Shown here piece after piece: positions 1 through 6,032 of a stretch of DNA of 64,000 nucleotides. The position numbers and the translations under genes are program-made. Source of the stretch: a virus (taxonomy: Duplodnaviria; Caudoviricetes); the IMG/VR virus record IMGVR_UViG_3300022242_000023, positions 1 to 64,000 of that record; one strand, written 5' to 3'. The first letter of the stretch is position 1; each line of letters starts with the position of its first letter. The notes under the pieces were generated by a model. It had not been told where the DNA came from. It ran no database searches and saw nothing but the letters and a program-made list of their open reading frames with translations.

Positions 1-280
1 GTGTAACAACACACTTGTCATTTTTTGAATGCACCAGTCTTATGTAGTTATGAAGACTTCTTATAATAATTATGCCCTGATGTGAAAGGTATCATCAATA
101 TGTAGATTATAAGATGTGAAACTACCTGATTAATACAATGGCTGCAGCCAATTTAATACAAAGGTGAAATTCTTTGTAGTTAATCAGCTCCCAAGGATAA
201 GCAATTATAACAGGCTCCTTTTTCTGCTGGAGTTTGGATAGGGGATTTAAAGCAGAACCACCTATTATAATTGAGTGCAG
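1..280 (+). ncRNA. candidate structured non-coding RNA (possibly truncated by the window edge)
   Basis: No ORF in the track; stems 36-41/53-58, 59-67/106-114, 78-82/93-97, 126-133/180-187, 139-142/147-150, 157-164/171-178, 202-210/265-273, 30-34/275-279; G-U wobble pairs work only on the + strand. Confidence 0.5.
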
Positions 281-391
281 AGGGGAAATTTTTTTAAAAT
301 AAAACTTACTAATTATGATAAATATCAGATCACCAGGTTAGTTAAACTATATATAATATAGTTAATATAATAATTTTTTTATCTAACACAC

Positions 392-429
392 AGATAAGGC
401 AGGAGATTAAATCTTGCCTTATCTTTTCT
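392..429 (+). terminator. intrinsic terminator-like hairpin
   Basis: agataaggcagga ... tcttgccttatct stem followed by T-rich sequence. Confidence 0.6.
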
Positions 430-442
430 AAAAAACAAAATC

Positions 443-661
443 ATGAAAAAAGCATTTTTAATTTCAGTGTTTATACTTCTTTGGGCATATGCATCTGAAG
501 TGGATATGTCATTATTTGCACAAACACCTAATACTCAACAAACCTACAAAGATACTGATAATAAAGTTTATCAGGTACATGTAGGAAAAAAAGGAGGAAT
601 GTACATTGTAAGAACCAGTAAATCTGGAAAGACTTACAAAAAATACATTAAAAAATTATGA
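443..661 (+). CDS. small secreted basic protein
   Basis: 72 aa; signal-peptide-like N-terminus and Lys-rich C-terminus. Confidence 0.75.
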   Translation: MKKAFLISVFILLWAYASEVDMSLFAQTPNTQQTYKDTDNKVYQVHVGKKGGMYIVRTSKSGKTYKKYIKKL

Positions 662-1002
662 AAAATCTATTATTCATGCTGTCATTAATACTAATGACAG
701 CATGCTCTTATGAAGAGCAATGGTTCCCCAAAACTCACGGATTAGCTCAAGATGGAGCTGATTCTATTAGTCTTATTTATAATCTGGATTATTTGACTAT
801 AATAAGATTTGAAAACAATGGAGATTGTTTTGTACCATTGGATCAAAAGATCAATATGGAGATTATCGAAATAAAATGTAATAATCTTCAGAAGGTAGTA
901 TCTATAGAATATATAGATGAAGGCATGTCTAAATCACATGAAGATAATTATATATTCTTATATGATGATTATATTATTTATAACGATATTGTTTACAAAT
1001 AA
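658..1002 (+). CDS. putative lipoprotein
   Basis: 114 aa; lipobox-like LMTAC; ATGA overlap with the previous ORF. Confidence 0.7.
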   Translation: MKNLLFMLSLILMTACSYEEQWFPKTHGLAQDGADSISLIYNLDYLTIIRFENNGDCFVPLDQKINMEIIEIKCNNLQKVVSIEYIDEGMSKSHEDNYIFLYDDYIIYNDIVYK

Positions 1003-1014
1003 AAATCTTAAAAA

Positions 1015-1854
1015 ATGTCAAAAATTACTTTTACCGAAGAAATAATAACACCTGCAATTGCCACGTATTACTTGTCATTAATGGGAAATAATAAAAAGCT
1101 AAGACAAGAAACTCTTATGAGATATGTACAAGACATACGAAATGGAAGATGGAAATCAGATACAGGAGAATCAATAAAATTTTCCAAAAGCGGAAGACTT
1201 ATTGATGGTCAACACAGATTGAATGCTATTATTATAGCAGGTATGACTTTAGTTCTATTAGTTGCTAGAGGACTAGATGATGAGGTATTTGATGTATTAG
1301 ATACAGGATCTAAAAGGACAGCATGTGACATATTTAAAATCAAAGGTATTAAATATGACACTTTAATTCCATCAATGATGGTAACATACAATAGTATTAA
1401 AGAAAATGGTAAAACAGGTAGTGGTTCTAATATTACTAAAACTGTAAGACCAAAAAATACTAATGCTGCATTATTAGAAGCATATTACAATGATCCATTA
1501 TTCTGGGAGCACGTAGCAACAAAAACATTTACATATTATAGATATATAGACAGATTGTTAACTCCTTCTTTTATAGGAGGATTATATGCTGTATTATATA
1601 AAATAAATAATAAAATGGCAGATGATTTTATGCACCAATTATGTAAAGGAGATGCTGCAGTTAAACCTATCACTTTAGCAAGACAGATTCTTTATACAGA
1701 TGGAGTATCAAAAACTTCAAAATTGACGCTAAATACAAAATTAGCATATATAGTAAAAGCATGGAATCTTTTTGTTAAAGGAAATAATAGCATCAAATCT
1801 TTAAGATTTGACCCAGCTAAGGAAGAATTTCCAAAAATATCAAGACCTATTTAA
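1015..1854 (+). CDS. ParB/Srx-like (DGQHR motif) phage protein
   Basis: GRLIDGQHRLNA motif preceded by GRWKSDTGESIKF. Confidence 0.75.
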   Translation: MSKITFTEEIITPAIATYYLSLMGNNKKLRQETLMRYVQDIRNGRWKSDTGESIKFSKSGRLIDGQHRLNAIIIAGMTLVLLVARGLDDEVFDVLDTGSKRTACDIFKIKGIKYDTLIPSMMVTYNSIKENGKTGSGSNITKTVRPKNTNAALLEAYYNDPLFWEHVATKTFTYYRYIDRLLTPSFIGGLYAVLYKINNKMADDFMHQLCKGDAAVKPITLARQILYTDGVSKTSKLTLNTKLAYIVKAWNLFVKGNNSIKSLRFDPAKEEFPKISRPI

Positions 1855-1874
1855 ATAACAATTTGTGGGAGGGA

Positions 1875-1919
1875 GCTACTTGCAGGAAAACTTTAAGTTA
1901 GTACTGCAAGTAGTTTTTT
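1875..1919 (+). terminator. intrinsic terminator
   Basis: gctacttgcag/ctgcaagtagt 11-bp stem followed by a T run, downstream of the ParB-like gene. Confidence 0.75.
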
Positions 1920-1923
1920 AAAT

Positions 1924-2009
1924 GCTATAGTGGTGGAATTGGTAGACACGCAGGACTTAAAATCCTGTTGACAGTAATGTCAGTATAGGTTCAAGTCCTA
2001 TCTATAGTA
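1924..2009 (+). tRNA. trnL: tRNA-Leu (anticodon UAA)
   Basis: Acceptor gctatag/ctatagt; D arm tggtggaattggtagacac; anticodon arm cagga-cttaaaa-tcctg; long variable arm tgac/gtca; T arm ataggttcaagtcctat; CCA not encoded. Confidence 0.95.
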
Positions 2010-2023
2010 CATAATTTAATATA

Positions 2024-2212
2024 ATGAGTAAAGTTAAACTGATTAATACACGTATATATTCTAAAACTGGAAGATATAATAATTGTAGAATATTAATAGA
2101 ACTTGAAAACAGATTTTATCCTTTTCCTGGTATAAATAACGCAGAATATGCTGTAGAAAAAGGTTTAGAGTATTTTGAATATTATCGAGTAACAAAGGAA
2201 GATTATGAGTAA
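2024..2212 (+). CDS. microprotein, array A
   Basis: 62 aa; GINNAEYAV motif; overlaps the next ORF. Confidence 0.7.
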   Translation: MSKVKLINTRIYSKTGRYNNCRILIELENRFYPFPGINNAEYAVEKGLEYFEYYRVTKEDYE

Positions 2213-2408
2213 ATATTTATTACTAAGAAGACCAACTAATAAAGAAACCTTTCAGCAATTATATTTTATAAAAACTTATGATAATAGATATTTCCCATGT
2301 TTTTTTCTTGATGAAAATAAGTTATTAAATTGTTATTACAGAAATTTTCCTAATTATCCTTTCGATTTATTAGACGAAAAAACTTTTAAAGCTATATATG
2401 AAGAATAA
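2205..2408 (+). CDS. microprotein, array A
   Basis: 67 aa; YFPCF strand; coupled to neighbours. Confidence 0.7.
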   Translation: MSKYLLLRRPTNKETFQQLYFIKTYDNRYFPCFFLDENKLLNCYYRNFPNYPFDLLDEKTFKAIYEE

Positions 2409-2613
2409 AGTTACATTTCTCAATCGTTATAAAAATCATAATCTTTCTCATGTACATACTATTGAAATAGATGGAGCATATTTTGCCTTTTCTACAAGTG
2501 ATATTAGCGATATAGAAAATATATTTATAGCAGCTAATGATTTTGAAATTAAACAATATTTAAAGGATAATTATATTAAATCTGATGAAGAAAATTTCAA
2601 AGCTAGGTATTAA
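2398..2613 (+). CDS. microprotein, array A (paralog of 2585-2836)
   Basis: 71 aa; YFAFSTSDISDIENIF and EIKQYLKDNY. Confidence 0.75.
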   Translation: MKNKVTFLNRYKNHNLSHVHTIEIDGAYFAFSTSDISDIENIFIAANDFEIKQYLKDNYIKSDEENFKARY

Positions 2614-2836
2614 AAAGAAAATTAAACTTATTAATTATTTTAAAGGTCGTAAATTATCTGAAATATATACTATTAAAATGGATGAATTATATTTTCCATT
2701 TGAATTTGAAGGAATTGAAATTCAAGATGTAGAAAACATTTTTACATACGCTAGTGCTACTACTCTTGAATTTAAAGAATACTTAAAAAGAAATTTTACT
2801 GACATTAGTGAAGAATATTACAGTATAAACATATAG
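2585..2836 (+). CDS. microprotein, array A
   Basis: 83 aa; YFPFEFEGIEIQDVENIF and EFKEYLKRNF. Confidence 0.75.
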   Translation: MKKISKLGIKKKIKLINYFKGRKLSEIYTIKMDELYFPFEFEGIEIQDVENIFTYASATTLEFKEYLKRNFTDISEEYYSINI

Positions 2837-2858
2837 ATTTTTATTTTTCATAATTTGG

Positions 2859-2900
2859 GCTAAACAGGAGAAGGAGAAATCTTTCTCCTAGTTTAGTTTT
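2859..2900 (+). terminator. intrinsic terminator-like hairpin
   Basis: aggagaagga-gaaa-tctttctcct, extended by gctaaac/gtttagt, then a T run. Confidence 0.7.
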
Positions 2901-2911
2901 AAAACTAATAA

Positions 2912-3085
2912 ATGGAAAAACATAAATTCATTAGAATAGCAAAAGCAGGTATATTAAACTGTAAATATAAGTATAATAATTCAGAGCATACTCATTACTT
3001 TTTTACTTTAAAAAGTCTTGAAAAATTCTTAATAAGTAAAGTTACGGCGGAATTCCTAATAATTGATCATGGCAAAGATAACTAA
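2912..3085 (+). CDS. microprotein, array A (not in ORF track)
   Basis: Hand-translated 57 aa MEKHKFIRIAKAG...TLKSLEKFL. Confidence 0.65.
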   Translation: MEKHKFIRIAKAGILNCKYKYNNSEHTHYFFTLKSLEKFLISKVTAEFLIIDHGKDN

Positions 3086-4244: not shown

Positions 4245-4757
4245 ATGAAAGTGACAATTGACAAATTAAATACATTATCTATAGATCAACTATTAGATCT
4301 AAAAGTAAAAAATGAAAAATTAGAAATTGATAACCCTTCTAATTTAGAACTAACATTTAAAGATTCTAATAATATAGCAGAATCTTTTGGGGTATCAGAC
4401 AATTTTACAAAGCAAATAGTAAGAGCATTAGAAGACTTAAAAGAGATAGAAAAGAAAGCAATTAAAAAAGTTTCAAGATATATGGAAGATAATAACATAG
4501 ATGTCTATAAGAAACTTGAACATGCAGAAGATGATATTGCAGCTTTGTTAAGCTCTATATTAAATAATAAAAAAGAGATAGATGAAGAATTATTTAGAGA
4601 TACAGCTAAAAAAATACTAGATAAAGAGACATATAAAATTGCTTTAACGGGTGCTGGGCAATTAGAGTATATGTATAAAACATTAGCACCACAAACATTA
4701 AACGAATTATCATATTTAATGTTTACATTAGGTAGTAAATCATCAAAAAATGGATAA
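4245..4757 (+). CDS. hypothetical helical protein
   Basis: 170-aa ORF in operon context. Confidence 0.75.
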   Translation: MKVTIDKLNTLSIDQLLDLKVKNEKLEIDNPSNLELTFKDSNNIAESFGVSDNFTKQIVRALEDLKEIEKKAIKKVSRYMEDNNIDVYKKLEHAEDDIAALLSSILNNKKEIDEELFRDTAKKILDKETYKIALTGAGQLEYMYKTLAPQTLNELSYLMFTLGSKSSKNG

Positions 4758-5121
4758 TAGTAAAGTAAGAATCGTAAAGAAACTAATTACTGCACCAGAT
4801 TTTATCTGGATACAGAATTTAATCCCATTTCTTAGACACCTGGGAGTGGAAGTACCTAAGGAAAATTTCTCAACGAGGTTTTTCATTGAAAAAGTGATAA
4901 ATTTTGACGCAATGATCAAAATTTTTTCAGTTAGACAAAGAGCTTTTTTAACTAAAAAACTTTTAGAGAGTTTTGGCATTACAGCAAAGGAGAATGATAA
5001 AGAAATATCATTCTCATATAATGAAGATTCCTCTAAAGAGGAAGCAGCAGTATTATTTGAAGTATTAACTGAAATAACTTCAAAACCAGTAGAAGCAGTA
5101 GTTTCTAATTTAAACCAGTAA
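4750..5121 (+). CDS. hypothetical protein
   Basis: 123 aa; overlaps the previous ORF. Confidence 0.7.
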   Translation: MDNSKVRIVKKLITAPDFIWIQNLIPFLRHLGVEVPKENFSTRFFIEKVINFDAMIKIFSVRQRAFLTKKLLESFGITAKENDKEISFSYNEDSSKEEAAVLFEVLTEITSKPVEAVVSNLNQ

Positions 5122-5164
5122 ACAATTTTTTTAAACATTTTTTAAACATTTAAACATTTTTATT

Positions 5165-5611
5165 ATGTCAAAATTAACAGAAGTAAGGTTGTCTAACAAC
5201 CCAAATGCAACTGTAGTTCCATCTAAGGATGGGATTAATGGAAAGATCAATGAAAGCTCTGATGGTGCGCAATATTGCACACTAGTGATCACTGATGATT
5301 CTAACCCTTTCAAAAAATCCACTTGTGTAAGAAACTACAGACAGCAAATGTCTGGAGGTAAGTGGAAATGGCCAGGTCTTACTCCAAAAGAGTTTTCTGC
5401 TTTGCAGGGAAAAGAAATTGGAGGAAGATTCTACACTGCAATTGTAGAACCTTACCAAATTGATGGCAGAATTGTGCATCAGTATACTACTTTTGTAGCA
5501 GAGAATGAGTCTGTAGCAACAGTTTTCAGAAATGCAGGCCACCCATTGGTGGTCAATACGGAAACTGGTGAAGTAGCTATGGAAAGCGCTACTAAACAAG
5601 TAGAAGCATAA
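5165..5611 (+). CDS. hypothetical protein (beta-rich, possibly nucleic-acid binding)
   Basis: 148 aa followed by a terminator; no motif recognised. Confidence 0.7.
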   Translation: MSKLTEVRLSNNPNATVVPSKDGINGKINESSDGAQYCTLVITDDSNPFKKSTCVRNYRQQMSGGKWKWPGLTPKEFSALQGKEIGGRFYTAIVEPYQIDGRIVHQYTTFVAENESVATVFRNAGHPLVVNTETGEVAMESATKQVEA

Positions 5612-5631
5612 ACATCAGTAAGTGAAGAATT

Positions 5632-5665
5632 AGGGGGAATAGAAATATTCTCCCTTTTTCTTTTT
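5632..5665 (+). terminator. intrinsic terminator
   Basis: agggggaata-gaaa-tattctccct followed by a T run. Confidence 0.75.
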
Positions 5666-5678
5666 AAAAACAACTACA

Positions 5679-6032
5679 ATGAAAAAAATACTGTTTCTAT
5701 TATTAATGAGTAGCACATTAAGTGCACAAATATTTATATCAGATGAATATTCTACAAGACTAATGTCTGAAAGAGAATATAGTGATCCTGAAATCTCTAC
5801 CACAATCATTACTGTAACTGAAAAAGTTATTATGATATCTGATTCTGGCGGATATAAAGTGTATGCTATATCTGATGTAGAACATAAAAAGTATGAATAT
5901 ACAGAATATCATGCTACACTTATTGCTAAACAAAATTTTTATAATATAGCTTTAAGAATTACTTCAGATAAAATGTTTTTAACTATTCCTGGTAAATTTT
6001 ACGTTTTAAAACTTAATAAAGTATGGCCTTAA
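5679..6032 (+). CDS. secreted hypothetical protein
   Basis: Signal peptide MKKILFLLLMSSTLSA-Q. Confidence 0.75.
   Translation: MKKILFLLLMSSTLSAQIFISDEYSTRLMSEREYSDPEISTTIITVTEKVIMISDSGGYKVYAISDVEHKKYEYTEYHATLIAKQNFYNIALRITSDKMFLTIPGKFYVLKLNKVWP

Follow-up and report, generated by a model that had tools for sequence, protein, structure and literature searches.

A large, previously unclassified family of structured RNAs in uncultivated phages, with a possible role as a cis-acting leader

Introduction

Classes of structured RNA that combine wide spread, strong covariation, invariant junctions and a pseudoknot are rare, and such classes have often proved to be riboswitches, ribozymes or the cores of ribonucleoprotein particles. 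Among described phage RNAs, GOLLD and ROOL (which we take to be Rfam families RF01998 and RF03087, respectively) are known mainly from metagenomes and are ornate, with variable peripheral arms, and they often lie near tRNA genes in ORF-poor DNA. The put RNA of phage HK022 is a two-hairpin RNA located just downstream of a promoter, and it acts in cis in processive antitermination. The glutamine riboswitch (glnA RNA) is built around a three-way junction with a loop-to-tail pseudoknot, occurs in tandem copies, and is also present in cyanophages. The pRNA of phage phi29 (Rfam RF00044) has a three-way-junction core and is encoded near the packaging genes. In the hammerhead ribozyme, the catalytic core (e.g., CUGANGA ... 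GAAA) is arranged around a three-way junction.

The DNA analyzed here, referred to as the window, comprises bases 1-64000 of a linear IMG/VR viral contig of 86,303 bp that is estimated to be 70% complete. A preliminary description of the window had proposed that its first 280 bases form a multi-domain structured RNA of no recognized class with two possible pseudoknots. Since the window begins at base 1 of the contig, this element stands at the very start of the contig. The present analysis gives good support to the conclusion that window 28-285 belongs, as a complete copy, to a large family of structured RNAs of uncultivated phages that had not been classified before.

Results

The window locus

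No ORF longer than 28 aa overlaps window 1-361 and no reading frame enters from the left edge, which bears out the description of the stretch as ORF-free and indicates that it is not part of a coding sequence. The seven complementary pairs and the small hairpins named in the preliminary description are all exact. Folded as a single copy, the stretch has a minimum free energy of -71.5 kcal/mol (z = -2.2), 1 of 200 dinucleotide shuffles is equally stable, and the reverse strand of the stretch folds at z = -2.3. The suggested comparison with shuffled controls thus came out in favor of the fold, but by a modest amount; taken alone, the fold of the window copy is modestly above chance, which is suggestive rather than proven. 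The GC content is 33.7% in the stretch and 28.8% in the whole contig, placing the stretch at the 87th percentile.

A 279-aa protein encoded at window 1015-1854 is encoded identically by several short contigs of other samples, and looking up the identical protein led to contig L002 (3,468 bp, another sample), which extends 1,151 bp further upstream. L002 1152-1455 corresponds to window 1-304 with 99.7% identity. The additional sequence, L002 1-1151, is ORF-poor and holds several strong hairpins, with a GC content of 43-47% at positions 300-500 (contig mean, 29%) and one 89-aa ORF (L002 260-529) that was not called by the gene caller. No conservation of L002 1-1090, the 1.1 kb 5' of the window, was found in other member loci, and since this sequence is not common to those loci, the family is a module and not a giant RNA. 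Immediately upstream of the window copy is a 3'-truncated, degenerate copy: the family model matches L002 1092-1189 at 33 bits, and L002 1091-1151 shares 93% identity with the 5' portion of a complete element in another locus (L156). The earlier suggestion that the structure extends upstream of the window was not upheld, as the element starts at base 28 and bases 1-27 are the end of the degenerate copy.

The DNA on the 3' side of the element differs between strains. A 342-bp segment (L002 1456-1797) with a 109-aa ORF (L002 1466-1795) lies between the element and the sequence that begins at window 288 in L002 and L003; it is missing from the window and from L004-L006, with the junction at window 285-304. 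In L009, whose shared DNA is ~86% identical, the end of a different gene is found at this junction. The segment is a strain-variable gene cassette directly 3' of the element. Its 109-aa ORF has a few homologs and no recorded Pfam family. The 279-aa protein has no Pfam hit and 54 metagenomic homologs, and its sequence LIDGQHRL presumably represents the DGQHR motif found in ParB/DndB-like domains. In the spacer that leads from the element to the first gene of the window, a hairpin with a 10-bp stem (AGAUAAGGCA/UGCCUUAUCU) followed by UUUUCU ends 12 nt before the ATG and looks like a terminator or a translation-masking hairpin.

Identification and extent of the family

A 26-nt stretch around TCCCAAGGATRAGCARTT is present twice in L002. 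Scanning IMG/VR with the 18-mer TCCCAAGGATGAGCAGTT gave 26 loci, 22 of which have a wider framework in common, and scanning with the 3' block ACAAYTGARTGCAGAGGG gave at least 120 loci. Among 185,579 species genomes, 58 of the 59 matches to the 18-mer are not the RNA, and the one family member (L099), which is the sole binned bacterial contig with the element, is probably viral. The other genome matches were rejected as members, many because they fall in one conserved Bacteroidota gene region and the rest because they are without the family flanks. In the Bacteroidota loci L049-L104, the 18-mer has the same conserved flanks on both sides and apparently lies inside a protein-coding gene; these loci are unrelated to the RNA and are a trap for pattern searches. 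BLAST of 50,697 GenBank phage records, with the window and a type A member (see below) as queries, gave no match. An exact 24-mer from the P5 arm was absent from the viral contigs searched, and following the neighboring genes (the 279-aa and 109-aa ORFs) led to distant homologs in other contexts, without related non-coding DNA.

Pattern searching yielded 57 distinct copies of the architecture designated type A, and 33 of these were aligned (alignment A1) and used to build covariance model R1. Alignment A3 consists of 17 full-length type B copies, including window 28-284, with six helices mapped from the window coordinates. R1 gave 132 matches in the window and 99 loci; 110 of them end in a GCAGAGG tail, and the remainder are weak or reverse-strand echoes. 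Another 46 matches were obtained in 39 loci (L181-L219), so that matches to R1 extend over 99 plus 39 viral loci (at least about 140 IMG/VR loci). Nine control loci, some from unrelated phages and others with Bacteroidota hairpins of the GTTGTAAT...ATTACAAC form, gave zero matches. In the 86-kb contig, the sole match to R1 is window 168-284 (30.8 bits, E = 3e-5), and the match scores low since R1, as a type A model, treats the type B arms as insertions. Many loci contain two to four copies, and in L032 three copies lie head to tail, two of them 3 nt apart.

Architecture and covariation

The type A core (80-200 nt) is a three-way junction that reads AA, P1, CAnaa, P2, C, P6, A, P1' and GAGGG. 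P1 is UGCAC/GUGCA, P2 is a 5-bp hairpin with the invariant loop UUCCCAAGG, and P6 is formed by CAGUUGUAAU/AUUACAACUG with a variable insert. The window copy (Table 1) is of type B, in which two additional arms, P3-P4 and P5, separate the P2 5' strand from the P2 loop, CUCCCAAGG. P3 (GURG/CYAC) encloses the conserved strands AUAUAAAGACU and UGUGAAA in addition to the P4 helix. As expected of a family member, the P2 strands of the window flank the invariant (U/C)UCCCAAGG at 188-196. About 35 nucleotides in the junctions and loops are invariant.

Table 1. Features of the element copy in the window and of the adjoining sequence
Feature	Coordinates	Strand	Evidence or remark
Complete element	28-285	+	End-to-end alignment with 16 type B relatives
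Linker and end of degenerate upstream copy	1-27	+	Hairpin GUGU-aaca-ACAC at 1-12; U-run at 21-26; rest of the copy is L002 1092-1151
Invariant AA, then P1 5' strand UGCAC	28-29, 30-34	+	P1 100% paired in A1 and A3
P2 5' strand CUUAU	39-43	+	Partner 197-201; replaces CUCAC/GUGAG of most members
P3 5' strand GUAG	44-47	+	Partner CUAC 122-125; 100% paired in 17 sequences
Conserved internal-loop strand UUAUGAAGACU	48-58	+	Consensus AUAUAAAGACU; invariant or nearly invariant A3 columns
P4 arm: helix 59-67/106-114, variable insert 68-105	59-114	+	First 6 pairs conserved
Conserved strand UGUGAAA, then P3 3' strand CUAC	115-121, 122-125	+	Invariant A3 columns; P3 covariation
P5 arm: CUGAUUAA/UUAAUCAG 126-133/180-187, variable insert 134-179	126-187	+	Covariation
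Invariant CUCCCAAGG	188-196	+	P2 hairpin loop in type A; invariant in A1 and A3
P2 3' strand AUAAG	197-201	+	P2 covariation in A1 and A3
P6 arm: CAAUUAUAA/UUAUAAUUG 202-210/265-273, variable insert 211-264	202-273	+	98% paired
Junction A, P1 3' strand GUGCA, invariant tail GAGGGG	274, 275-279, 280-285	+	Invariant columns
A/U-rich spacer to first downstream gene (ATG 443)	286-442	+	Holds hairpin 392-430; read from sequence

Covariation among homologs, which had been proposed as a check on the structure, was found in both alignments. Pairing holds in 97.4% of cells among the 33 type A sequences of A1, with double changes at 10 of 21 pairs; none of 500 shuffles reaches the observed score, and slid controls are 21-49% paired. 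All five pairs of P2 covary, in type A as well as in type B, with versions that include CUCAC/GUGAG, CUAUC/GAUAG, CCUGA/UCAGG, UCAGC/GCUGA and CUAGC/GCUAG. Because P2 is absent from both search patterns, its covariation is unbiased. Unguided, RNAalifold recovers the same three helices for type A and predicts invariant U-G closing pairs in P2. The 17 type B sequences of A3 have 37 pairs that are 97.3% paired, with compensatory changes in 19; no shuffle out of 500 is as good, and slid controls are 28-46% paired.

The closing pair of P1 covaries from C-G to U-A, and L032 and L116 have UGCGU/ACGCA variants. P3 is GUGG/CCAC in 11 sequences and GUAG/CUAC in 6. The first 6 pairs of P4 are 97% paired with compensatory changes in 3, and the P4 insert (window 68-105) could not be aligned between members. 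The 8 pairs of P5 are 96% paired with compensatory changes in 6; the P5 insert of the window forms two hairpins, which were seen only in the single-sequence fold. None of the relatives has the small hairpins of the window's P4 and P5 inserts. In P6, two A-U pairs of the window replace G-C pairs of the consensus CAGUUGUAA/UUACAACUG. The window itself supplies the compensations CUUAU/AUAAG in P2, GUAG/CUAC in P3 and CAAUUAUAA/UUAUAAUUG in P6. Inserts in P6 range from 25 to 200 nt and on average fold better than shuffles, with z about -1.

These alignments also show how the pairings proposed from the single sequence fared. The multi-domain structure held, with five of the proposed pairings being helices that have compensatory changes in the 17 full-length copies and three of the five also being kept in the 33 shorter relatives. 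The long-range pairing of 30-34 with 275-279, suggested to close the domain, is the conserved P1, and the pairings 59-67/106-114, 126-133/180-187 and 202-210/265-273 are the conserved P4, P5 and P6, respectively. The hairpin 36-41/53-58, on the other hand, is specific to the window; the family-wide partner of 39-43 is 197-201, and the two form P2. One of the two supposed pseudoknots, 44-49/120-125, is a conserved pairing (as 44-47/122-125), but it is the nested helix P3 and not a pseudoknot. The other, 222-228/251-257, lies in the variable P6 insert and shows no compensatory change in two homologous inserts, where 5 of the 7 pairs (L209) and about 3 of the 7 (L133) are kept.

A proposed loop-to-tail pseudoknot and a possible closing helix

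A different pseudoknot is suggested by a third architecture, type C, which is represented by five members (L119, L133, L134, L165 and L196). These lack the UUCCCAAGG loop and have a short P2 loop, such as GUAA in two of them. In all five, a tract complementary to the tail lies directly 5' of AA-UGCAC, with CCC or CCCC opposite GGG or GGGG and, in L133, CUCUC opposite GAGAG; L134 has AG opposite UU as well, giving a continuous helix. Such a tail-complementary 5' flank is found in 1 of 51 type A copies. Because these variants carry the complementary tract in the 5' flank instead of the loop, we infer that in types A and B the CCC at 190-192 pairs with the GGG at 282-284, forming a pseudoknot that would stack on P1. 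In types A and B the nucleotides concerned do not vary, which puts the pairing there beyond the reach of ordinary covariation.

The sequence UUAA is enriched 3-18 nt 3' of the tail (48 of 123, compared with 23 +/- 4 in shuffles; window 294-297) and is complementary to a UUAA that precedes P1 in most members. These sequences hint at an additional closing helix, P0, which would leave GAGGGRWW as a bulge.

Genomic context and strand

Genes clustered downstream of the elements share the element's strand and those clustered upstream have the reverse orientation, an arrangement that places the element at a divergent junction. A large terminase gene (phrog_6681, E = 5e-88) is located ~5 kb upstream on the opposite strand. 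For 44 of 109 elements, the distance from the tail to the start of an ORF of 30 aa or more is 20-60 nt; the first ORF of the window, 159 nt after the tail, is outside this peak. A gap of 20-60 nt is too short for a separate promoter, which indicates that the + strand is transcribed through the element, and the module is probably transcribed together with the genes to its right. The strand assignment is based on gene context and not on wobble pairs or fold energy. In the core helices, counts of G-U and A-C mismatches (6 versus 5 in A1; 5 versus 4 in A3) did not distinguish the strands, and neither did the z-scores of P6 insert folds (-1.03 versus -0.87, p = 0.17). G-U pairs make up < 1% of the pairs in the core, an unusually small share for an RNA.

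The first proteins encoded downstream are mutually unrelated and include small membrane proteins, lipoproteins and unknowns. Genes for tRNA or tmRNA occur in about a third of 60 loci scanned, at no fixed distance from the element. Upstream of the family member in L038 is a 140-nt tRNA-like match (214-353, 33.7 bits), possibly a tRNA with an insertion, and L046 has a phage-encoded tmRNA and five tRNAs (4435-5977) 2-3 kb downstream of its copy. No promoter motif at a fixed distance upstream of the elements was found, and only UWUU directly before AAUGCACC is conserved there. Downstream of the elements, terminator-like hairpins show no enrichment (17 of 95 elements versus 35 of 285 control positions); about 8% of the copies have a hairpin and U-tract that end 6-9 nt before the element. 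A search for an expression platform found neither a competing terminator nor a sequestering helix.

Comparison with known families

The window had been said to match no recognized RNA class, and this was confirmed with Rfam 15 (4227 models). At the gathering threshold, window 1-64000 gave only tRNA-Leu, and at E <= 1-10 there was no family match in window 1-3000, window 1-320, L002, L137 440-660 or 10 member loci. In the relaxed search, the only matches that overlap any element are chance snoRNA or miRNA matches of 9-22 bits.

Several specific candidates were considered. The base of P6 resembles, we believe, the ends of some Cas13b repeats, which raised the idea of a CRISPR-repeat mimic; among 401 Bacteroidota genomes, none has more than two occurrences of the pattern GTTGTAAT-N(10-30)-ATTACAAC, and the idea was dropped because these genomes contain no arrays of it. 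The P6 insert, at 25-200 nt, is also not repeat-sized. Small self-cleaving ribozymes found no support: no Rfam ribozyme gave a hit, and the junction strands are CAUAA, C and A. Nor did a generic riboswitch, as the downstream genes are unrelated and terminators are not enriched. Neither word searches nor sequence-string searches of the literature turned up a description of the motif; the sequences of PMC10690425, which presents a large automatic IMG/VR catalogue of viral candidate RNAs, lay outside those searches and may include the motif as an unnamed entry.

Discussion

What is the function of an RNA module whose core is so strongly conserved and whose neighbors are so diverse? We consider the chances to be about even that the new phage RNA family to which window 28-285 belongs works in cis, as a leader or an aptamer-like domain. 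The module would stand first in a gene block oriented away from the terminase/structural block, in many cases with a start codon 20-60 nt further on, and would act on the genes that follow it. It may bind a conserved partner, which could be a small ligand or else part of the host machinery, for instance the ribosome or RNA polymerase, and such binding would set the expression of whichever variable genes come next. Since the element precedes diverse, unrelated genes, it may serve these phages as an all-purpose expression device.

A more specific version of the cis-acting model, which we put forward tentatively and regard as doubtful in its full form, is that the family is a new functional RNA class with a specific partner, either a riboswitch-like aptamer or a leader that binds a host machine, and that it gates fast-evolving early or accessory genes. 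The type A, B or C architecture together with the loop-to-tail pseudoknot would then constitute the binding pocket, and phages would place the element singly or in tandem before early or accessory genes. An element that recruits the ribosome or RNA polymerase might suit hosts in which Shine-Dalgarno pairing plays no part.

The main alternative, which we consider unlikely though worth weighing, is that the module is a stable phage non-coding RNA that acts in trans and does not regulate the adjacent gene. Such an RNA could be cut from a longer transcript or transcribed as its own unit, and could serve as a decoy, as the scaffold of a ribonucleoprotein or, like ROOL and GOLLD, as an ornate RNA that assembles with itself. 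It would account for the lack of relationship between the genes beside the element at different loci, for the frequency of tandem copies (3 nt apart in L032 and up to 4 per locus), and for the tRNA or tmRNA genes in about a third of the loci scanned. Sequence conservation is very strong in the loops and extends even to the helices, as would be expected for a fixed partner, and some members (e.g., L164, L178 and L113) are followed by a good intrinsic terminator. However, 40% of the elements lie 20-60 nt before a start codon with no intervening terminator, a co-occurring protein partner was not identified, and Rfam gave no match to ROOL, GOLLD or any other family.

It is improbable that the module is a self-cleaving ribozyme or RNA-processing module that cuts a polycistronic transcript at its own boundary and so defines RNA ends. 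The compact fold, with its proposed pseudoknot and ~35 invariant junction and loop nucleotides, would suit a ribozyme, as would the head-to-tail tandem units and the position of the element between transcription units, close to tRNA genes in some loci; yet none of the hammerhead, twister, HDV-like, hatchet or pistol models matches the family, and its junction strands are unlike the hammerhead core. Least probable of all is a DNA-level element whose inverted repeats act in single-stranded or cruciform DNA as a replication/priming site, packaging signal or recombination hotspot near the terminase gene: the almost purely Watson-Crick core helices (G-U being no commoner than A-C mismatches), the conservation of the 10-bp P6 base in sequence as well as pairing, the divergent intergenic site ~5 kb from the large terminase gene, and the frequent proximity to contig ends and to a strain-variable insertion are compatible with this idea, but repeat arms separated by 25-200 nt of unrelated sequence are ill-suited to a dimeric DNA-binding site, the nested multi-helix architecture includes a pseudoknot-type swap in type C, invariant U-G closing pairs are predicted in P2, the orientation relative to downstream genes is consistent, and assembly breaks at repeated modules can explain the contig-end positions.

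The family has been seen only in uncultivated phages, in at least about 140 viral contigs and in 0 of 50,697 GenBank phage records; the hosts are presumed to be Bacteroidota. It is nonetheless directly testable, as architectures A, B and C define a minimal construct of 80-110 nt and the nucleotides to mutate.

Among the systems considered, phi29 pRNA shares with the new family a phage origin, a three-way-junction core and a location in the general region of the packaging genes. The pRNA model does not match the family, however, and the terminase here is a classical large terminase (phrog_6681) and not a phi29-type packaging ATPase; nor do the copy number of the element and its place before diverse ORFs fit a pRNA. 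HK022 put resembles the new family as a structured phage RNA that heads a long same-strand gene block, is present in more than one copy per genome, and may act on anything downstream whatever its identity. The two differ in that the new family has a three-way junction and a proposed pseudoknot, is not at a fixed distance from a promoter, and is not followed by an enrichment of terminators, and no sequence relation between them was found.

In its design, the family resembles glnA-type aptamers, with covarying helices around an invariant junction and loop, an arm of free length, a pseudoknot (proposed in the new family) with the 3' tail, and tandem copies. It differs from glnA-type riboswitches in having no Rfam riboswitch match, no conserved class of downstream gene and no sequestering helix. 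GOLLD and ROOL, in turn, resemble the family in being phage-borne and mainly metagenomic, in having variable arms, and in often lying near tRNA genes in ORF-poor stretches. The covariance models of GOLLD and ROOL do not match the elements even at E <= 10, and the new RNA is of a different kind: it is much smaller (80-370 nt), is built on a simple three-way junction, is often in tandem, and often stands just before a start codon.
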